Notes: generated by a model from the letters alone, not told the origin. Positions 5,145 to 13,812 are shown, counted from the first letter of the stretch. The stretch: DNA of 64,000 nucleotides from Escherichia coli (GCF_024223415.1 NZ_CP100500.1), one strand, 5' to 3'. Numbers and translations: made by a program.

Positions 5145-5172
5145 AAGGGCAGATTCTTTTCTGCCCTTTTTT
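5145..5172 (+). terminator. Intrinsic terminator downstream of fruA
   Basis: AAGGGCAGA-ttctttt-CTGCCCTT stem followed by a T-run; a second perfect 9-bp hairpin lies at ~5003-5027. Confidence 0.7.
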
Positions 5173-5412
5173 AGTGTTCATGTTCTGTGCATCCCGTCAC
5201 AAATTCCTCGCTTTTGTAATTCAGGCATTTAATCGCATTTTGTGAGCCTGCTCAAATCTGCCCGCTTTGCCTCTCTGGCGGCAATTTACTTTACGTAAAA
5301 CATGCATACTATGAGCACATGTTTAAATATGAACACATGTTTAAACCGTCTTTGCAGTATCTATATCCTTGTGGATTGACAGGGTTGGTAATTTTTTACC
5401 AGAGGACGTGCT

Positions 5413-6354
5413 ATGCGCGAAAAGGATTATGTCGTAATTATAGGTTCGGCGAATATTGATGTCGCCGGATATTCACATGAATCATTAAATTATGCGGATT
5501 CAAATCCAGGTAAAATAAAATTTACACCTGGTGGAGTAGGGCGAAATATTGCACAAAACCTGGCGTTGCTGGGTAACAAAGCCTGGCTACTGAGCGCAGT
5601 AGGTAGTGATTTTTATGGTCAATCGCTGCTAACGCAAACCAATCAATCTGGCGTTTATGTCGATAAATGCCTGATTGTGCTGGGAGAAAATACGTCGAGT
5701 TATTTATCATTACTCGATAATACCGGTGAAATGCTGGTTGCTATAAATGACATGAATATTAGCAACGCTATTACAGCTGAATATCTCGCACAACACCGTG
5801 AATTTATTCAGAGGGCAAAGGTCATTGTCGCGGACTGTAATATCAGTGAAGAGGCACTGGCATGGATTCTGGATAATGCCGCCAACGTACCCGTATTTGT
5901 CGATCCGGTTTCAGCGTGGAAATGTGTCAAAGTGCACGACCGTCTAAATCAGATCCACACTCTGAAGCCAAACCGCCTTGAAGCGGAAACCCTGAGTGGG
6001 ATAGCGCTGTCAGGGCGTGAAGATGTGGCAAAGGTTGCCGCCTGGTTCCATCAACATGGCCTGAACCGACTGGTATTGAGCATGGGCGGCGATGGCGTTT
6101 ATTACAGTGAAATCAGCGGTGAAAGTGGCTGGTCTGCCTCGATCAAAACCAATGTTATTAATGTTACCGGAGCGGGCGATGCCATGATGGCGGGACTTGC
6201 TTCGTGTTGGGTAGACGGAATGCCGTTTGCCGAATCTGTTCGTTTCGCACAGGGATGTTCGTCAATGGCGCTCTCCTGTGAATACACCAATAACCCCGAT
6301 TTATCGATTGCCAACGTTATATCGTTAGTGGAGAACGCAGAATGTCTGAATTAA
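5413..6354 (+). CDS. psuK: Pseudouridine kinase (PfkB family)
   Basis: 313-aa ORF, MREKDYVVIIGSANIDV...; matches recalled PsuK/YeiC. Confidence 0.9.
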   Translation: MREKDYVVIIGSANIDVAGYSHESLNYADSNPGKIKFTPGGVGRNIAQNLALLGNKAWLLSAVGSDFYGQSLLTQTNQSGVYVDKCLIVLGENTSSYLSLLDNTGEMLVAINDMNISNAITAEYLAQHREFIQRAKVIVADCNISEEALAWILDNAANVPVFVDPVSAWKCVKVHDRLNQIHTLKPNRLEAETLSGIALSGREDVAKVAAWFHQHGLNRLVLSMGGDGVYYSEISGESGWSASIKTNVINVTGAGDAMMAGLASCWVDGMPFAESVRFAQGCSSMALSCEYTNNPDLSIANVISLVENAECLN

Positions 6355-7280
6355 AAATTTCCCCTGAATTATTACAAATTTCCCCGGAAGTGCAGGACGC
6401 TTTAAAAAACAAAAAACCGGTTGTGGCGCTGGAATCGACCATTATTTCTCACGGGATGCCGTTCCCACAAAATGCCCAGACCGCAATTGAAGTTGAAGAA
6501 ACTATTCGTAAACAGGGCGCAGTACCTGCCACTATCGCCATTATTGGTGGCGTGATGAAAGTGGGTTTAAGCAAAGATGAAATTGAATTACTGGGTCGTG
6601 AAGGGCATAACGTGACCAAAGTTAGTCGTCGCGATTTACCTTTTGTTGTTGCCGCCGGAAAAAATGGCGCAACCACTGTGGCTTCAACGATGATTATTGC
6701 GGCGCTTGCCGGAATTAAAGTATTTGCCACCGGGGGAATTGGTGGTGTTCATCGCGGGGCGGAACATACCTTCGATATTTCTGCCGATTTGCAAGAACTG
6801 GCAAATACTAATGTCACCGTTGTTTGTGCCGGGGCGAAATCTATTCTCGATTTAGGATTAACCACTGAGTATTTAGAAACCTTCGGTGTGCCGTTAATTG
6901 GCTATCAGACTAAAGCGCTGCCTGCGTTTTTCTGCCGCACCAGCCCATTTGAAGTCAGTATTCGCCTTGATAGTGCCACGGAAATCGCTCGTGCAATGGC
7001 AGTGAAATGGCAAACCGGTTTGAACGGTGGTCTGGTAGTGGCGAATCCGATCCCGGAACAGTTTGCGATGCCGGAGGAATCTATCAATGCAGCCATAGAT
7101 CAAGCCGTCGCCGAAGCCGAAGAGCAGGGCGTTATTGGTAAAGAAAGTACACCGTTCCTGCTGGCGCGTGTTGCTGAACTGACCGGCGGTGACAGCCTGA
7201 AATCCAACATCCAACTGGTGTTCAACAACGCCATTCTGGCGAGCGAAATTGCCAAAGAATACCAGCGTCTCGCGGGTTAA
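6342..7280 (+). CDS. psuG: Pseudouridine-5'-phosphate glycosidase
   Basis: 312-aa ORF overlapping the psuK 3' end; matches recalled PsuG/YeiN. Confidence 0.9.
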   Translation: MSELKISPELLQISPEVQDALKNKKPVVALESTIISHGMPFPQNAQTAIEVEETIRKQGAVPATIAIIGGVMKVGLSKDEIELLGREGHNVTKVSRRDLPFVVAAGKNGATTVASTMIIAALAGIKVFATGGIGGVHRGAEHTFDISADLQELANTNVTVVCAGAKSILDLGLTTEYLETFGVPLIGYQTKALPAFFCRTSPFEVSIRLDSATEIARAMAVKWQTGLNGGLVVANPIPEQFAMPEESINAAIDQAVAEAEEQGVIGKESTPFLLARVAELTGGDSLKSNIQLVFNNAILASEIAKEYQRLAG

Positions 7281-7373
7281 TTTCTGACGGGCAGAAAGCC
7301 GTCGCCCGTACTGATCATACATACCGAAACCTGGCGCTGACGCCGGGTTTACTGGCATGAAGGGAAAATCATT

Positions 7374-8624
7374 ATGGATATAATGAGAAGTGTTGTGGGG
7401 ATGGTGGTGTTACTGGCAATAGCATTTCTGTTGTCGGTAAATAAAAAGAGCATCAGTTTGCGCACGGTTGGAGCCGCACTGCTGCTGCAAATCGCTATTG
7501 GTGGCATCATGCTCTATTTTCCGCCGGGAAAATGGGCAGTAGAACAGGCGGCATTAGGCGTTCATAAAGTGATGTCTTACAGTGATGCCGGTAGCGCCTT
7601 CATTTTTGGTTCGCTGGTCGGGCCGAAAATGGATGTCTTGTTCGACGGTGCAGGCTTTATCTTCGCCTTTCGCGTACTTCCGGCGATTATCTTCGTCACT
7701 GCGCTTATCAGCCTGCTGTACTACATTGGCGTAATGGGACTGCTAATTCGTATTCTTGGCAGCATTTTCCAGAAAGCTCTTAACATCAGCAAAATCGAGT
7801 CTTTTGTTGCGGTTACCACTATTTTCCTCGGGCAGAACGAGATCCCGGCGATCGTTAAACCGTTTATCGATCGCATGAATCGCAACGAGCTGTTTACCGC
7901 AATTTGTAGCGGGATGGCATCCATTGCCGGTTCGATGATGATTGGTTACGCCGGAATGGGCGTGCCGATTGACTACCTGTTAGCGGCATCGCTGATGGCT
8001 ATCCCAGGCGGTATTTTGTTTGCACGTATTCTTAGCCCAGCAACCGAGCCTTCGCAGGTCACGTTTGAAAATCTGTCGTTCAGCGAAATGCCGCCAAAAA
8101 GCTTTATCGAAGCAGCGGCGAGCGGTGCGATGACCGGGCTGAAAATCGCCGCCGGTGTGGCGACGGTGGTCATGGCGTTTGTCGCAATTATTGCGCTGAT
8201 TAATGGCATTATTGGCGGAATTGGCGGCTGGTTTGGTTTTGCCAATGCCTCTCTGGAAAGTATTTTTGGCTATGTGCTGGCACCGCTGGCGTGGATCATG
8301 GGTGTGGACTGGAGTGATGCCAACCTTGCGGGTAGCCTGATTGGGCAGAAACTGGCGATTAACGAATTCGTCGCTTACCTGAGTTTCTCCCCATACCTGC
8401 AAACGGGCGGCACGCTGGAAGTGAAAACCATTGCGATTATCTCCTTTGCGCTTTGTGGTTTTGCTAACTTTGGTTCTATCGGTGTTGTCGTTGGGGCATT
8501 TTCGGCTATTTCGCCAAAACGTGCTCCGGAAATCGCCCAGCTTGGTTTACGGGCGCTGGCAGCAGCAACGCTTTCCAACCTGATGAGCGCGACCATTGCC
8601 GGGTTCTTTATTGGTTTAGCTTGA
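7374..8624 (+). CDS. psuT: NupC-family nucleoside transporter (putative pseudouridine transporter)
   Basis: 416-aa polytopic ORF, MDIMRSVVGMVVLLAIAFLLSVNKK...; paralogue of nupX in this window. Confidence 0.9.
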   Translation: MDIMRSVVGMVVLLAIAFLLSVNKKSISLRTVGAALLLQIAIGGIMLYFPPGKWAVEQAALGVHKVMSYSDAGSAFIFGSLVGPKMDVLFDGAGFIFAFRVLPAIIFVTALISLLYYIGVMGLLIRILGSIFQKALNISKIESFVAVTTIFLGQNEIPAIVKPFIDRMNRNELFTAICSGMASIAGSMMIGYAGMGVPIDYLLAASLMAIPGGILFARILSPATEPSQVTFENLSFSEMPPKSFIEAAASGAMTGLKIAAGVATVVMAFVAIIALINGIIGGIGGWFGFANASLESIFGYVLAPLAWIMGVDWSDANLAGSLIGQKLAINEFVAYLSFSPYLQTGGTLEVKTIAIISFALCGFANFGSIGVVVGAFSAISPKRAPEIAQLGLRALAAATLSNLMSATIAGFFIGLA

Positions 8625-8691
8625 GTTTCATTGCCGGATGTACTCGCTTATTAAGCGTTGCATCCGGCAATCGCGCTATTGCAAATAATTT

Positions 8692-9351
8692 TTACTGCAT
8701 CATCCCGGAGAATTTATTCTCCGGGTCCATCTCCAGCGCCAGTCCTGACAACTGCTTTCTGTTTTTAATGAGATATCCTTTCTTGCTTTTAATTAATAAA
8801 CCGTCGTGAATGAATTGCGCGAGAACATATAAAAGATGTCGATAAGAAACGCCTAAATACTCTGCCGCTTGCGTATGCTTTTCGTGATAAAGATCACCTT
8901 CTTGTGAGAGTAATATAAATGCTGCCAGGCGATTCACTAACGGAAATGATTGATTCTGAGTTAAAGAAACAATATTACGATAATTTTTATGACTTAAGGT
9001 GACGCAAAGTTTTCGTAAAAATAGGGTGTCGTTTAATAACAGCGGACGGTAATGTTTCATAGGGAGCGCAAGGCACCAACACTCTTCAATCGCCTGTACT
9101 GCACGTGGTTCATGGTCTTTATCGATTAACTCAATCTCGCCAATAAAACAGGGGGCGGCAAAGAAATCGATCAGCGACACGCAACCATTAGCTAGCGTGG
9201 CGTAAAGCCTGGCGCGGCCTCGCGTCAGGTAAAACAGCCAGGACGGCTGTTGCCCTTCCTGCACAATGTAGTCACGCGCTAAAAAATGAAACAGCCGCGT
9301 ATCGGCTGAAACATCCGTTAAAAAGCAATCCTTAAACGCGGATTCACTCAT
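8692..9351 (-). CDS. yeiL: CRP/FNR-family transcriptional regulator YeiL
   Basis: Track ORF is 232 aa; start placed at [10 protein letters not shown]... (219 aa) from recalled YeiL; C-terminal HTH. Confidence 0.85.
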
Positions 9352-9519
9352 CAATTGCTGCTTAAGATCATTATTGTGGATTTCTTTCACGATGTTTATC
9401 CGCTATGAGATTTCTCATATTTAGCATACGTACGCTGTTGTTAAGATTCAATCATCGGCCCGGTCGAATTTTCTTTGCTGTAGAAAAAATAACGCAACTG
9501 GAAACAGAGGAAATAAACA

Positions 9520-10461
9520 ATGGAAAAGAGAAAAATTATTCTGGATTGTGATCCGGGTCATGATGATGCTATTGCAATGATGATGGCAGCGAAACATCCG
9601 GCAATAGATTTATTAGGCATCACTATTGTAGCGGGTAATCAGACGCTTGATAAAACATTAATTAATGGCCTGAATGTTTGCCAGAAACTGGAGATTAATG
9701 TTCCGGTTTATGCGGGGATGCCGCAACCCATTATGCGTCAACAAATCGTTGCCGATAATATTCACGGTGAAACCGGACTGGATGGCCCGGTATTCGAGCC
9801 GCTGACCCGCCAGGCAGAAAGTACCCACGCGGTGAAATACATCATTGATACCCTGATGGCAAGCGATGGCGATATCACTCTGGTGCCGGTTGGTCCGTTG
9901 TCAAATATCGCGGTGGCAATGCGTATGCAACCCGCAATCCTGCCCAAAATCCGTGAAATTGTGCTAATGGGCGGCGCTTACGGTACAGGCAACTTCACGC
10001 CATCTGCCGAGTTCAACATCTTTGCTGACCCGGAAGCCGCACGCGTGGTGTTCACCTCCGGCGTTCCATTAGTGATGATGGGCCTCGATCTTACCAACCA
10101 GACCGTTTGCACCCCGGACGTAATTGCTCGGATGGAAAGGGCAGGCGGCCCTGCCGGAGAGCTATTCAGCGACATCATGAACTTCACTCTCAAAACGCAG
10201 TTCGAAAACTACGGCCTGGCTGGCGGCCCGGTGCACGACGCCACCTGCATCGGTTATCTGATTAACCCTGATGGCATTAAAACCCAGGAGATGTACGTCG
10301 AAGTGGACGTCAACAGTGGCCCTTGTTATGGGCGTACCGTCTGCGACGAGCTGGGCGTTCTTGGCAAGCCCGCTAATACCAAAGTCGGCATCACTATTGA
10401 TACCGACTGGTTCTGGGGCTTAGTCGAAGAGTGCGTGCGCGGCTACATCAAAACCCATTAA
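9520..10461 (+). CDS. rihB: Pyrimidine-specific ribonucleoside hydrolase
   Basis: 313-aa ORF with the N-terminal DCDPGHDD nucleoside-hydrolase motif. Confidence 0.92.
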
Positions 10462-10560
10462 GTGTTGATAACAAGCCGGGCCGGTATCGCAAGATGCAGG
10501 CCTGGCTATTTCTGAGGGGCAGAAAGCCGTCGCCCAATATGACATGAAGAGATAATAACT

Positions 10561-11808
10561 ATGGATGTCATGAGAAGTGTTCTGGGAATGGTGGTATTGC
10601 TGACGATTGCGTTTTTACTGTCAGTAAACAAGAAGAAGATCAGCCTGCGTACCGTTGGCGCGGCGTTAGTGTTACAGGTCGTGATCGGCGGGATTATGCT
10701 TTGGTTACCGCCAGGGCGTTGGGTCGCTGAAAAAGTCGCTTTTGGCGTGCATAAAGTGATGGCGTACAGCGATGCAGGTAGCGCATTTATCTTCGGTTCG
10801 CTGGTCGGGCCGAAAATGGACACGCTGTTTGATGGCGCAGGATTTATCTTTGGTTTCAGGGTGTTACCGGCAATTATCTTCGTCACCGCGCTGGTGAGTA
10901 TTCTCTACTACATCGGTGTGATGGGGATCTTAATTCGCATTCTCGGCGGTATCTTCCAGAAAGCGTTAAATATCAGCAAGATCGAGTCATTCGTCGCGGT
11001 CACTACCATTTTCCTCGGGCAAAACGAAATTCCGGCAATCGTCAAACCCTTTATCGATCGGCTGAATCGCAATGAGTTATTTACAGCGATTTGTAGTGGC
11101 ATGGCCTCAATTGCCGGTTCGACAATGATTGGTTACGCCGCGCTGGGCGTGCCTGTGGAATATCTGCTGGCGGCATCATTAATGGCGATCCCCGGCGGGA
11201 TCTTGTTTGCCCGCCTGTTAAGCCCGGCTACGGAATCTTCGCAGGTTTCCTTTAATAACCTCTCTTTCACCGAAACACCGCCAAAAAGCATTATTGAAGC
11301 GGCAGCGACAGGGGCGATGACCGGGCTGAAAATCGCTGCGGGTGTGGCAACAGTGGTGATGGCATTTGTTGCCATCATTGCGTTAATTAACGGTATTATC
11401 GGCGGCGTTGGCGGCTGGTTTGGTTTTGAACATGCCTCGCTGGAGTCCATTTTAGGTTATCTGCTGGCCCCACTGGCGTGGGTAATGGGTGTTGACTGGA
11501 CTGATGCGAATCTTGCCGGGAGTTTGATTGGACAGAAACTGGCAATAAATGAATTTGTCGCTTATCTCAATTTCTCACCCTATCTGCAAACGGCTGGCAC
11601 TCTGGATGCTAAAACCGTGGCGATTATTTCCTTCGCGTTGTGCGGTTTCGCTAACTTTGGTTCTATCGGGGTGGTGGGGGCGTTTTCTGCGGTTGCGCCA
11701 CACCGTGCGCCGGAAATCGCCCAACTTGGTTTACGCGCGCTGGCGGCGGCGACACTTTCTAATCTGATGAGTGCCACCATTGCCGGGTTCTTTATTGGTT
11801 TAGCGTAG
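10561..11808 (+). CDS. nupX: NupC-family nucleoside permease
   Basis: 415-aa ORF, MDVMRSVLGMVVLLTIAFLLSVNKKK...; close paralogue of psuT. Confidence 0.9.
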   Translation: MDVMRSVLGMVVLLTIAFLLSVNKKKISLRTVGAALVLQVVIGGIMLWLPPGRWVAEKVAFGVHKVMAYSDAGSAFIFGSLVGPKMDTLFDGAGFIFGFRVLPAIIFVTALVSILYYIGVMGILIRILGGIFQKALNISKIESFVAVTTIFLGQNEIPAIVKPFIDRLNRNELFTAICSGMASIAGSTMIGYAALGVPVEYLLAASLMAIPGGILFARLLSPATESSQVSFNNLSFTETPPKSIIEAAATGAMTGLKIAAGVATVVMAFVAIIALINGIIGGVGGWFGFEHASLESILGYLLAPLAWVMGVDWTDANLAGSLIGQKLAINEFVAYLNFSPYLQTAGTLDAKTVAIISFALCGFANFGSIGVVGAFSAVAPHRAPEIAQLGLRALAAATLSNLMSATIAGFFIGLA

Positions 11809-11863
11809 TGTGCGATTTATGAGCCGGATTAGATGCGGTCAAGCGTCGAATCCGGCAACATTG

Positions 11864-12952
11864 TTACACCATTGGCACTAATGACAGCGCGTTATCGGCA
11901 GACAGGGTAGGGTTGTTTAAGCTGCCGCTGGCGCGTGAAATTGCCGCGCAGGCCATCGCAAAACGGGCGCTGTCACGGAAATTGTTTCCCTCCAGAAAGC
12001 TATATACCAGACCCGCCATAAAACCATCGTCAGCACCAAAACTGTCTACCGTCGTATGCGCTGGCACAGTCAGCAAAAATTGTTCACCATCCTTTTCGCT
12101 GCAATAAACTGACTCATCGGGCAAATAAACAAACAGTTGCTGAACACCTTGCTGATGCAATGCATTCACTGCGGCATTACGGTCAGCATCGCTGGTGATC
12201 GCCTGTCCCCATAAAATTTCCAGCTCCGGTAAAGTGGGTTTCAGGGTGTGAACATGCGCCAGCCAGTGTTTGATTTTGCCCGCTTTGAATTCTGAAACGG
12301 TATCGACAAACACCGGGATCTCACCAGCGAGGGTAAAGACCCATTCCAGCGCCTCGGCTGTCAGGTTGCAATCAGCCAGTACCACGCCCGCATGACGAAG
12401 TAAATCGCGCGACCCGTTCAATAATTGCGGCGATAACTGTTCCAGCAGATGGGTATCGTTAATCGCCAGCACGGTTTGATCGTCTCGATTGGCAATTGCC
12501 AGATACGTCGATGTGCTTTGACCATGTAAACGAACGCAGCCGGAGACATTCACGCCGGCGCGGCGCGTTTCTTCCAGGAGCATTTCGCCATAAAAGTCAT
12601 CGCCAATCACTGAAAGCAAATGGACGTCACGGCCTAACAGCGCCAGATTGTGGGCGATGTTGCGTCCCACGCCGCCCGCCGAGCAATGAATCGTACCGGG
12701 ATGAGAAGCCGCTTGCGGGTAACGGATATCCGCCATCCCGCGAATATCCATATTGATTGTCCCCACCACTACGCAGTATTCCTGCTCGGTGAGAATGTAA
12801 CCTTTGCCTTTAATCCGCCCTTTGCGCATTAAATCCATAATATGCGCCGCAACGCGCGAACGACTGATTTGCAGCATGTCCGCAATTTCGTTCTGCTGAA
12901 TCAGCGGGTTACGCCGTAAAATTGCAAGGATCTCCTTTTCCCGGTTATTCAT
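11864..12952 (-). CDS. yeiI: PfkB-family sugar/nucleoside kinase with N-terminal HTH domain
   Basis: 362-aa ORF; N-terminal HTH (NNREKEILAILRRNP...) fused to a ribokinase-like domain paralogous to psuK. Confidence 0.88.
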   Translation of the reverse strand: MNNREKEILAILRRNPLIQQNEIADMLQISRSRVAAHIMDLMRKGRIKGKGYILTEQEYCVVVGTINMDIRGMADIRYPQAASHPGTIHCSAGGVGRNIAHNLALLGRDVHLLSVIGDDFYGEMLLEETRRAGVNVSGCVRLHGQSTSTYLAIANRDDQTVLAINDTHLLEQLSPQLLNGSRDLLRHAGVVLADCNLTAEALEWVFTLAGEIPVFVDTVSEFKAGKIKHWLAHVHTLKPTLPELEILWGQAITSDADRNAAVNALHQQGVQQLFVYLPDESVYCSEKDGEQFLLTVPAHTTVDSFGADDGFMAGLVYSFLEGNNFRDSARFAMACAAISRASGSLNNPTLSADNALSLVPMV

Positions 12953-12954
12953 CT

Positions 12955-13812
12955 TCAGGCTACCGCTTTTTCAGTTTGTTGCGCTTTCAGCCAGGCGATC
13001 TCTTCTGCCCAGATATCCGGGTTGATGGTTTCGAGGATCAGCGGAATGCCGTCGAAACGGTCGTCCTGCATGATCCAGCGGAACGCATCATGACCGATAT
13101 TGCCTTCACCGAGGCTATGATGGCGGTCAACGCGGCTGCCAAAGGTGCTTTTCGCATCGTTAAGGTGCATCCCGCGCAGATACTTAAAGCCGACAATACG
13201 GGCAAAATCCGCGAACGTTTTCTCGCATTCGGCTGGAGTACGCAAATCATACCCGGCAGCGAAAGCATGGCAGGTATCAATGCAGACGCCTACACGGGAT
13301 TTATCTTCCACGCCGTCGATAATCGCCGCGAGATGTTCGAATTTAAACCCTAAGTTACTGCCCTGACCGGCGGTGTTTTCAATCACCGCGGTCACACCTT
13401 GAGTTTTATCCAGCGCAATGTTGATGGATTCGGCAATACGCGCAAGGCAATCCTCTTCTGAAATCTGCATCAGATGGCTGCCAGGGTGGAAATTGAGCAA
13501 AGAAAGCCCCAGTTGTTCGCAACGCTGCATTTCATCTATAAAGGCATCGCGCGATTTTTCCAGAGCTTCAGCGACCGGATGTCCGAGGTTAATCAGATAG
13601 CTGTCGTGGGGAAGAATTTGCGCCGATGTGTAGTGATATTTTTCACAGGCGGCTTTGAATTCATCGATGGTTTGCGTCGTGAGCGGTGCGGCACGCCACT
13701 GACGTTGGTTTTTGGTGAACAAGGCAAACGCGGTTGCGTCGATTTCGGCGGCGCGAATTGCGGCATTTGCCAGACCGCCAGCAGCACTAACGTGCGCTCC
13801 AATGTATTTCAT
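12955..13812 (-). CDS. nfo: Endonuclease IV (AP endonuclease)
   Basis: 285-aa [17 protein letters not shown]...; matches recalled Nfo. Confidence 0.95.

Follow-up and report, generated by a model that had tools for sequence, protein, structure and literature searches.

The pseudouridine kinase of Escherichia coli, PsuK or PUKI, for which structures have been solved (PDB 7VKP, 7VTD, 7VVA), is the closest described relative of YeiI, a protein from the same gene cluster that joins a domain for binding DNA, of the winged helix-turn-helix (wHTH) type, to a kinase-like domain of the PfkB fold. In PsuK, whose residue numbers are used throughout, S30, N143 and K170 are hallmarks of pseudouridine kinases, the exchange D256A lowers kcat 3,280-fold, and the dimer undergoes a Ser30-dependent quaternary change that is triggered by pseudouridine and not by ATP (PMC9061257); the Mg site includes N187, and the small ATP loop is formed by GxxG (PMC9247573). 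YeiI, which has been listed among hypothetical transcription factors (PMC6055005), has the fold, the ribose contacts and the base contacts S30/N143/K170 in common with PsuK at 38% identity. PsuK has no HTH and intact NxxE, GxxG and GAGD motifs, whereas YeiI has TxxE, PDES and GADD and an N-terminal wHTH. We compared the two proteins and their surroundings in a 64-kb stretch of E. coli DNA (64,000 nucleotides (nt) of GCF_024223415.1, NZ_CP100500.1; hereafter the window), in which the studied block covers 7,540 bp at 5413-12952. It is the known E. coli cluster for the use of pseudouridine (psuK-psuG-psuT) and of pyrimidine ribonucleosides (rihB-nupX), and two of its genes, yeiI and yeiL, are of the regulator type. 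From the sequence comparisons, we consider it fairly probable that each module has a regulator of its own, with YeiI acting in trans as a pseudouridine-sensing repressor of psuKGT and YeiL as a regulator of rihB-nupX.

The pseudouridine module and yeiI with its two domains are located as follows.

5413-6354, plus strand: psuK (yeiC), pseudouridine kinase without an HTH (NF007355 equivalog, 704 bits, cut-off 540)
6342-7280, plus strand: psuG (yeiN), pseudouridine-5'-phosphate glycosidase, Indigoidine_A (PF04227, E=1e-132; RefSeq)
7374-8624, plus strand: psuT (yeiM), CNT/NupC-family transporter (TIGR00804, 516 bits, cut-off 442)
11864-12952, minus strand: yeiI, HTH_24 and PfkB (Pfam)
12809-12952, minus strand: wHTH domain of yeiI, amino acids (aa) 1-48 (PF13412, E=1e-10; three helices and a wing in the model)
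11909-12781, minus strand: kinase-like PfkB-fold domain of yeiI, aa 58-348, the proposed ligand sensor (PF00294, E=2e-68)

YeiI was examined as a set of eight orthologues from Escherichia, Citrobacter, Enterobacter and Leclercia, and compared with 73 loci outside the core Enterobacteriaceae that carry wHTH-PfkB fusions. The eight orthologues keep the ribose contacts N14 and D16, the residues Y97 and N112, and the pseudouridine-kinase hallmarks Ser/Thr30, Asn143 and Lys170 (S30, N143 and K170; 8/8); every hydrogen-bonding contact to pseudouridine is kept, and the hydrophobic contact M114 is changed. K185, E190, D164 and the catalytic base D256 (YeiI D309) are also kept. The substitutions N187T, G225P/Q/K/E, G228S, T252F, G255D, M114T and D29A/S are present in 8/8, at positions of which N187, G228, G255, M114 and D29 are invariant in 73/73 fusions, with Gly at 225 in 71/73 and Thr at 252 in 63/73. 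As a result, the NxxE motif reads T-L-P-E (T in 8/8 YeiI versus N in 73/73 fusions), the GxxG small ATP-binding loop has changed from GGDG to PDES, and the anion hole has changed from GAGD to GADD, with T252 replaced by Phe in 8/8 and the catalytic Asp retained. Against the PsuK equivalog NF007355, YeiI scored 256 bits, below the cut-off of 540. On these motifs, YeiI looks like a former pseudouridine kinase that has lost its ATP-handling motifs.

An AlphaFold2 (AF2) model of YeiI, with a predicted local distance difference test score of 87.9, has a three-helix winged HTH on a flexible linker and overlays E. coli PsuK with a target-normalised TM-score of 0.94-0.95 and a root-mean-square deviation of about 1.9 A; it also overlays ribokinases. 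Solved structures containing both HTH and PfkB domains were not found. The ratio of nonsynonymous to synonymous substitution (dN/dS) was about 0.07-0.08 for the kinase-like domain and about 0.02-0.04 for the HTH, although dS was saturated and the ratios are rough, and the dN of the kinase-like domain was similar to that of PsuK. Judged from these rates, both YeiI domains are under purifying selection, and the kinase-like domain does not appear to be decaying. The mean identity of YeiI to the 73 fusions was 59% in the HTH versus 39% in the kinase-like domain, the HTH being higher in 73/73, and the recognition helix ISRSxVAxHI was nearly invariant across phyla.

To place YeiI in its family, 80 genome loci were examined. 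Homologues were searched for, 100,044 species genomes were scanned for wHTH-PfkB fusions, and a family-wide search covered 1.84 billion representatives. The fusion was found in Gamma- and Betaproteobacteria, Clostridia/Oscillospiraceae, a spirochaete and a Lutibacter genome. Its catalytic motifs DSNPG, KPNxxE and TG[ACG]GD were intact in 73/73 fusions, and nearly all fusion genes with enough flanking DNA lay directly upstream of psuG on the same strand. The non-Enterobacteriaceae fusions are evidently, by their motifs and neighbours, the pathway's own kinases bearing a DNA-binding domain. Loss of the anion-hole Gly (G255) or the catalytic Asp (D256) was confined to HTH-bearing family members and was seen in 0 of about 30 HTH-less representatives.

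These comparisons bear on an idea put forward in a first-pass annotation of this DNA, that the HTH-PfkB fusion is a kinase doubling as a ligand-sensing regulator. The fusion architecture itself was confirmed (HTH_24 at aa 1-48, PfkB at aa 58-348), and a regulatory role of the HTH-PfkB protein is supported by comparative genomics through the conserved operator described below and the strongly conserved HTH. YeiI could then be a fully active bifunctional nucleoside kinase and transcription regulator in the manner of BirA or NadR, in line with its intact PfkB fold (Pfam and AF2 overlay), its retained catalytic Asp, K185, E190 and D164, the purifying selection on its kinase-like domain, and homologues of the same architecture that look like true kinases. 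However, three separate phosphoryl-transfer/ATP motifs that are invariant or nearly so in the 73 psuG-adjoining fusions are replaced in 8/8 YeiI, a dedicated PsuK is encoded in the same cluster, and a related protein at another locus (L087, below) is without even the catalytic Asp. Moreover, a psuK mutant is unable to use pseudouridine, and therefore YeiI is no substitute for PsuK (PMC12506659). Full bifunctionality of YeiI thus appears unlikely to us: a kinase doubling as regulator fits the fusions elsewhere, with their intact motifs and their position upstream of psuG, but not E. coli YeiI, in which the Mg, ATP and anion-hole motifs are replaced while the HTH-less PsuK does the chemistry.

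The region upstream of psuK was aligned across eight Enterobacteriaceae species. Two CRP-like sites are followed by a -35/-10 pair and then immediately by two 12-bp palindromes, as listed.

5186-5201, unstranded: CRP-like site 1, TGTGCATCCCGTCACA; consensus match only, core conserved in the eight-species alignment
5241-5256, unstranded: CRP-like site 2, TGTGAGCCTGCTCAAA; consensus match only, centre at about -71 from the guessed transcription start
5285-5312, plus strand: putative psuK promoter, -35 TTTACT at 5285-5290, 16-nt spacer, -10 TACTAT at 5307-5312; conserved blocks
5313-5324, unstranded: candidate operator O1, GAGCACATGTTT, abutting the -10; 20-mer 5309-5328 at 12.8 bits, second-best of the window
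5331-5342, unstranded: candidate operator O2, GAACACATGTTT, 18 bp from O1; 20-mer 5327-5346 at 17.2 bits, best of the window

A generic promoter scan at its threshold did not pick up the proposed psuK promoter, which was assigned from conservation only. The two CRP-like sites are not among the CRP sites given in the main text of an in vitro CRP footprint study, which lists one inside yeiL (PMC12871828).

The palindromes belong to a motif of the fusion family. Within 120 nt upstream of the fusion gene, AAACAnnTGTTT with at most one mismatch occurred at 37/73 loci (shuffles: mean 0.8, maximum 4), at a density of 4.95 per kb versus 0.053 per kb elsewhere in the loci; when two mismatches were allowed, it occurred at 63/73 fusion loci versus 7.8 expected. 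Neighbouring sites were 18-19 bp apart in 29 of 48 pairs. A weight matrix was built from 42 sites upstream of fusions in other taxa and from zero Enterobacteriaceae psuK promoters, and its best two matches in the 64-kb window were 5327-5346 and 5309-5328, the third reaching 10.3 bits; a Firmicutes-only matrix returned the same top two, with the O1 20-mer at 13.5 bits. The motif also carried over between phyla: the best 20-mer of the approximately 21-kb locus fell within 150 nt upstream of the fusion in 14/36 Proteobacteria loci with the Firmicutes-trained matrix and in 21/26 Firmicutes loci with the Proteobacteria-trained one, the chance of such a position being 0.0075 per locus. In Enterobacteriaceae loci carrying yeiI, the top matrix match lay 65-100 nt upstream of psuK in 10/11, and O2 was the single window match with at most one mismatch in the psuK promoter region. 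Because YeiI has the only matching HTH in the locus and the fusion-family operator persists at the promoter of an HTH-less psuK, the tandem palindromes at 5309-5346 are the predicted cognate operator of the YeiI wHTH. At yeiI, nfo, yeiH, rihB and nupX, the best operator match reached 7.6 bits and lay inside the yeiI coding sequence, so that there was no sign of YeiI autoregulation through the AAACAnnTGTTT motif.

In the intact fusions, the wHTH-PsuK protein most likely represses its own operon, as the position of the two AAACAnnTGTTT palindromes 18-19 bp apart would suggest. In Photorhabdus, Serratia, Xenorhabdus and 'Klebsiella sp.' (L010, L012, L015, L016, L017, L020), an extra operator-like site of up to 23.7 bits was observed about 280 nt upstream of the fusion gene, lying about 250 nt farther upstream than the proximal pair; it might serve as an auxiliary operator in DNA looping.

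A replicate of the layout was found at locus L087, where an HTH-PfkB protein (P0103) with K185I, N187S, G255D and D256N is more degenerate than YeiI. Its gene is convergent to an operon of CNT, psuG and HTH-less psuK, and upstream of this psuK, at 35-75 nt, there are two operator sites with a spacing of 18 bp. A site pair 20 bp apart also stands ahead of an operon including a nucleoside hydrolase at the locus of another such protein, P0302 (L089). As controls, two HTH-less psuK-psuG loci without such a regulator nearby had no operator site (best 3.9 bits, n=2). The HTH-PfkB proteins P0268 (L088) and P0302, both without the catalytic Asp, were observed with a hydrolase operon or genes for nucleoside ABC-transporter permeases as neighbours, and the conversion of kinase to regulator may have happened several times. 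It may well be, although the balance is even, that wHTH-PsuK constitutes a widespread, undescribed class of enzyme-repressor with a shared tandem AAACAnnTGTTT operator from Clostridia to Gammaproteobacteria, which would have been split in Enterobacteriaceae, and independently elsewhere, into PsuK and a pseudokinase sensor-repressor such as YeiI. A literature search, the scope of which lay outside RegPrecise, found no published regulon or operator description for HTH-PsuK or YeiI.

The history of the two proteins was examined with a neighbour-joining tree of the kinase domains, in which HTH-less PsuK fell inside an HTH-bearing Enterobacterales clade with 99% bootstrap and YeiI was a long-branched sister in that HTH-bearing group with 77% support. 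A tblastn search with eight HTH domains for a relic upstream of E. coli psuK gave a best E of 0.09, and there are in-frame stops upstream of psuK; E. coli PsuK is therefore truly without an HTH. The simplest history suggested by these data is a duplication followed by loss of the HTH in one copy and of the phosphoryl-transfer motifs in the other. An HTH-psuK gene would have been duplicated in an ancestor shared by Escherichia, Citrobacter, Enterobacter and Leclercia; one copy would have lost the HTH and become the enzyme PsuK, and the other would have kept the HTH and the nucleoside pocket, lost the ATP, Mg and anion-hole motifs and become YeiI.

The gene immediately upstream of yeiI on the minus strand bears on its expression.

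12955-13812, minus strand: nfo, endonuclease IV (ORF call, RefSeq)

The nfo stop and the yeiI ATG are separated by 2 nt, so that nfo-yeiI is a likely transcription unit; the tight junction is also present in Citrobacter, Enterobacter and Leclercia, and an RpoD holoenzyme signal from systematic evolution of ligands by exponential enrichment is listed at nfo>yeiI (PMC3946193). In the proposed mechanism, YeiI would be made from the nfo-yeiI unit, and its dimer would bind O1 and O2 across the psuK transcription start, overlapping the start of a CRP-type psuK promoter for which CRP would provide catabolite control. By analogy with PsuK, pseudouridine binding would close the beta-clasp dimer of YeiI and release the DNA. 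It is a speculation that the split of sensor from enzyme would keep the sensor from consuming its own inducer. In work attributed to Breitman in 1970, pyrimidine auxotrophs reportedly could use pseudouridine only after mutations that raised the enzyme levels, as would fit an operon under repression.

It could also be supposed that YeiI is a kinase for a different substrate, such as another modified nucleoside, with no role at the psuK promoter, where some other factor, or nothing at all, would bind the palindromes. The YeiI pocket is altered by M114T and D29A, the 2-nt junction implies co-transcription of yeiI with nfo and not with the psu genes, and a machine-learning label of YeiI as a "second pseudouridine kinase" has been criticised (PMC12506659). 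However, the palindrome tracks the HTH-bearing gene across phyla, YeiI is the sole protein of the locus with that HTH, whose recognition helix is nearly invariant, and L087 repeats the layout of regulator plus operator. The KdgR box was considered as the identity of the palindromes and rejected: the half-sites are similar, but the centre of the KdgR box is 1 nt versus 2 nt here, and the motif tracks the fusion gene in Firmicutes. We regard a kinase for another substrate as improbable.

Several points weigh against YeiI as the sensor-repressor of psuKGT. YeiI is still called uncharacterised (PMC9061257, PMC12506659), and the effector, which could be pseudouridine, its 5'-phosphate or another nucleoside, is proposed from pocket conservation alone, in a pocket that M114T and D29A alter. 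The retention of D256, K185, E190 and D164 in E. coli YeiI makes residual or altered kinase activity possible. That operator and promoter overlap is guessed from a predicted psuK transcription start, the Enterobacter asburiae sites are weak (4.0 bits), and other E. coli HTH_24 proteins may be alternative binders. Near-consensus matches across the window are at chance (4 found versus 3.4 expected), and the significance of the operator thus rests on rank, position, pairing and conservation. The long YeiI branch could be misplaced in the tree, which was obtained by neighbour joining only and supports it at 77%.

The second module consists of yeiL and the divergent rihB-nupX genes.

8692-9390, minus strand: yeiL, CRP/FNR-family regulator (NF007707, 415 bits, cut-off 180; PF00027 and PF13545)
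9404-9419, unstranded: candidate YeiL box, TATGAGATTTCTCATA, a perfect palindrome between the divergent genes yeiL and rihB; unique in the window
9520-10461, plus strand: rihB (yeiK), pyrimidine ribonucleoside hydrolase (ribosylpyrimidine nucleosidase equivalog NF007417, 728 bits)
10561-11808, plus strand: nupX (yeiJ), CNT transporter, 415 aa here (TIGR00804, 492 bits, cut-off 442)

YeiL has a cNMP-binding-like domain (PF00027, E=8e-13) and a C-terminal Crp-type HTH (PF13545, E=2.8e-06). The palindrome was identical in Citrobacter amalonaticus and Hafnia alvei and was TATGAGAATTCTCACA in Enterococcus malodoratus; as TATGAGAnnTCTCATA, it was conserved perfectly between E. coli, Hafnia and C. 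amalonaticus and almost perfectly in Enterococcus. There was no second YeiL box in the 64-kb window, even with three mismatches. In C. amalonaticus, Hafnia and Enterococcus, yeiL is likewise divergent from a rihB-type hydrolase operon. Because both the divergent position and the palindrome are conserved, YeiL is probably a local regulator of rihB-nupX and of itself, which would bind TATGAGAnnTCTCATA between yeiL and rihB. The CRP/FNR assignment of yeiL had been correct in the first-pass annotation (cNMP_binding and HTH_Crp_2), but as a regulator its target is most simply the divergent rihB-nupX and not the psu genes, considering the synteny and the single YeiL box. According to RegulonDB, autoregulation is the sole recorded target of YeiL (PMC9308461). 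The similarity of YeiL to CRP or FNR is only about 20% (Anjum, Green and Guest 2000, as cited in PMC3590769), and the rihB-nupX target refines an idea of that year as it is cited there.

The Enterococcus YeiL orthologues (E. malodoratus L086 7001-7672) are 57-59% identical to E. coli YeiL and keep both the palindrome and the divergent hydrolase operon; between Gram-positive and Gram-negative bacteria such an identity is unusually high, which suggests that regulator and operon were transferred horizontally as a unit. As annotated, yeiL starts with a GTG at 9390 and encodes 232 aa. A promoter-like -35/-10 pair at 9398-9370 would put the transcription start downstream of this GTG, and an internal ATG at 9351 is favoured for that reason; it gives a YeiL of 219 aa, the form in UniProt. 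With this start, the YeiL box would lie about 40-50 nt upstream of both divergent starts.

The block had been described as built from duplicated kinase and transporter modules of high mutual identity. The transporters PsuT and NupX are indeed 88% identical in aa, but the kinases PsuK and YeiI are only 38% identical over 306 aa and are old paralogues, differing in orientation and architecture, so that a segmental duplication of kinase plus transporter was not found. The DNA homology of psuT and nupX runs from the last base of the psuG stop codon through the end of the transporter gene, that is, it covers the transporter gene and its leader only, and nothing in the psu module corresponds to rihB or yeiL. 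Since the nt identity is 78% with about half of the third codon positions changed, the psuT/nupX duplication is old or one copy was imported. Published transport data, in which NupX transported uridine and cytidine weakly and PsuT transport of uridine, cytidine and xanthosine was not detected (PMC11241209), fit a functional divergence of the two. That the block is a tandem duplication of one kinase-plus-transporter module with both halves coordinated by YeiL is highly improbable: two PfkB and two CNT genes do lie within 7.5 kb and the psuT/nupX homology reaches into the leader, but PsuK and YeiI differ as described, the third positions of psuT and nupX are heavily diverged, yeiL with rihB-CNT is free-standing in Hafnia and missing in Escherichia albertii, three Citrobacter, Enterobacter and Leclercia, and only one YeiL box is present.

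In E. albertii, three Citrobacter, Enterobacter asburiae and Leclercia, yeiH-nfo-yeiI is followed by convergent psuT-psuG-psuK without yeiL, rihB and nupX, and yeiI directly adjoins psuT. The complete E. coli-type arrangement is also present in C. amalonaticus, whereas in Hafnia alvei, yeiL divergent from rihB-CNT is a free-standing unit at a separate locus, and in E. malodoratus, yeiL is divergent from a hydrolase-ribokinase-ABC-transporter operon. The synteny across these genomes indicates that the three genes yeiL, rihB and nupX form a mobile unit of their own, which was inserted between psuT and yeiI. Horizontal acquisition of the block as an island was considered on composition and not adopted, the mild GC dips at psuK and yeiL (0.41-0.47 versus 0.53-0.55 in the flanks) not being decisive.

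Within E. coli, psuK and yeiI were observed as two deeply diverged allele classes of about 80% nt and 84-87% aa identity (window versus L083 and L003), the minority class resembling E. albertii. In the minority-class strains, nfo, yeiL and rihB are 96-98% identical to the window and psuG and psuT about 89-90%, and the psuK promoter and operators vary in step with the allele class. An ancient haplotype, introgression or co-evolution may account for these classes. NupX is carried by 4,440/5,426 complete E. coli genomes, about 18% being without it. In strain KE48 (L083 6648-6815), an approximately 1.1-kb internal nupX deletion has joined a 66-nt 5' stub to the 3' end. In the window, nupX has one GGT fewer in the GGTGGTGGT run at 11668-11682, giving 415 aa versus 416; the 3-bp deletion removes one Val of GVVVGAF in a transmembrane segment, is common to about 4 of the 4,440 E. 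coli genomes carrying this part of nupX, and is a rare allele due to slippage or else an error in sequencing.

The leaders of the two transporter genes contain RNA elements.

7287-7309, plus strand: psuT leader hairpin 1, conserved loop AGAAAGCCGTC; one compensatory pair in the alignment; also in the nupX leader
7327-7350, plus strand: psuT leader hairpin 2, A-tract, GC stem and U-tract, terminator-/attenuator-like (sequence inspection)
10516-10535, plus strand: nupX leader copy of hairpin 1 (leader comparison)

The two leaders (7281-7350 and 10509-10535) share a 28-nt element, TTTCTGAnGGGCAGAAAGCCGTCGCCC, at 96% identity, versus 78% for the coding regions; it folds into a hairpin whose 11-nt loop is conserved, and some of the changes across genera are compensatory. 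By leader comparison, hairpin 2 is absent from the E. coli nupX leader. A search of the region against Rfam at permissive thresholds gave three chance-level matches only, none at the psuT or nupX leaders. The leader element may be an attenuator or a protein-binding RNA.

The gene content named in the first-pass annotation (psuK-psuG-psuT, rihB-nupX, yeiI and yeiL) was confirmed by open reading frame (ORF) calling, RefSeq, Pfam and NCBIfam, and the ORF limits called on the window were exactly those it gave. The family of each product was confirmed with E-values of 1e-13 to 1e-244, the HTH sub-domains matching more weakly (YeiL 2.8e-06, YeiI 1.2e-10, Pfam), and both PsuT and NupX have all of the Nucleos_tra2_N, Gate and Nucleos_tra2_C domains. 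PsuG and psuK overlap by 13 nt. The 7,540-bp block was matched in 5,425/5,426 complete E. coli genomes. The E. coli RefSeq records that match best differ from the window solely by the 3-bp nupX indel and give the order fruA, psuK-psuG-psuT, yeiL (opposite), rihB-nupX and yeiI-nfo-yeiH (opposite). The remaining features are given below.

5145-5172, plus strand: intrinsic terminator-like hairpin at the end of the fruBKA operon (9-bp stem, T-run)
8633-8668, unstranded: repetitive extragenic palindromic (REP)-like palindrome between convergent psuT and yeiL (sequence inspection)
11823-11856, unstranded: REP-like palindrome between convergent nupX and yeiI (sequence inspection)

A REP-like palindrome thus lies 3' of each transporter gene, psuT and nupX. 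The nupX-yeiI spacer is 106 nt in K-12 (L082 7903-8008), which has an extra REP-like unit, versus 55 nt here.

The gene content of this cluster is textbook knowledge, and what would be new is YeiI as a kinase-derived pseudouridine sensor-repressor acting in trans on psuKGT. This model specifies a regulator, a target of 34 bp (5309-5342, with the identical sequence in K-12) and a probable ligand, and would account for the second 'kinase' in the cluster. If it is true, a y-gene of E. coli would receive a named function, the automatic labels of YeiI as a sugar kinase or second pseudouridine kinase would be corrected, and PsuK and YeiI would be a clean natural case of subfunctionalisation of an enzyme and its regulator. 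Furthermore, pseudouridine production strains, now engineered around psuT and psuG, could exploit or remove YeiI control.

Among known systems, CRP and FNR have a cNMP-binding-like domain and a Crp-type HTH in common with YeiL, whose palindrome with TGA/TCA cores lies at a divergent promoter; the candidate YeiL half-site is ATGAG, in contrast to TGTGA or TTGAT for CRP/FNR. BirA and NadR combine an HTH with an active pathway enzyme and are the best analogy for the intact HTH-PsuK of Serratia, Shewanella and Clostridia, but YeiI appears to have given up the enzymatic half, and the split into PsuK and YeiI is without counterpart there. The plant PfkB pseudokinases FLN1 and FLN2 resemble YeiI in their degenerate catalytic motifs and in a non-catalytic role linked to transcription, although they have no DNA-binding domain and are eukaryotic plastid proteins of an unrelated pathway. 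For the ROK repressors NagC and Mlc, the fold is the ROK/actin-like ATPase fold and not the PfkB ribokinase fold, the HTH is of another family, and the effectors are N-acetylglucosamine 6-phosphate and PtsG sequestration. NagC and Mlc likewise consist of an N-terminal HTH and a metabolite sensor of sugar-kinase fold that has lost its kinase role, and they repress the matching catabolic and transport genes through paired operators, as is proposed for YeiI, which would then be a PfkB-fold counterpart to these kinase-derived repressors.

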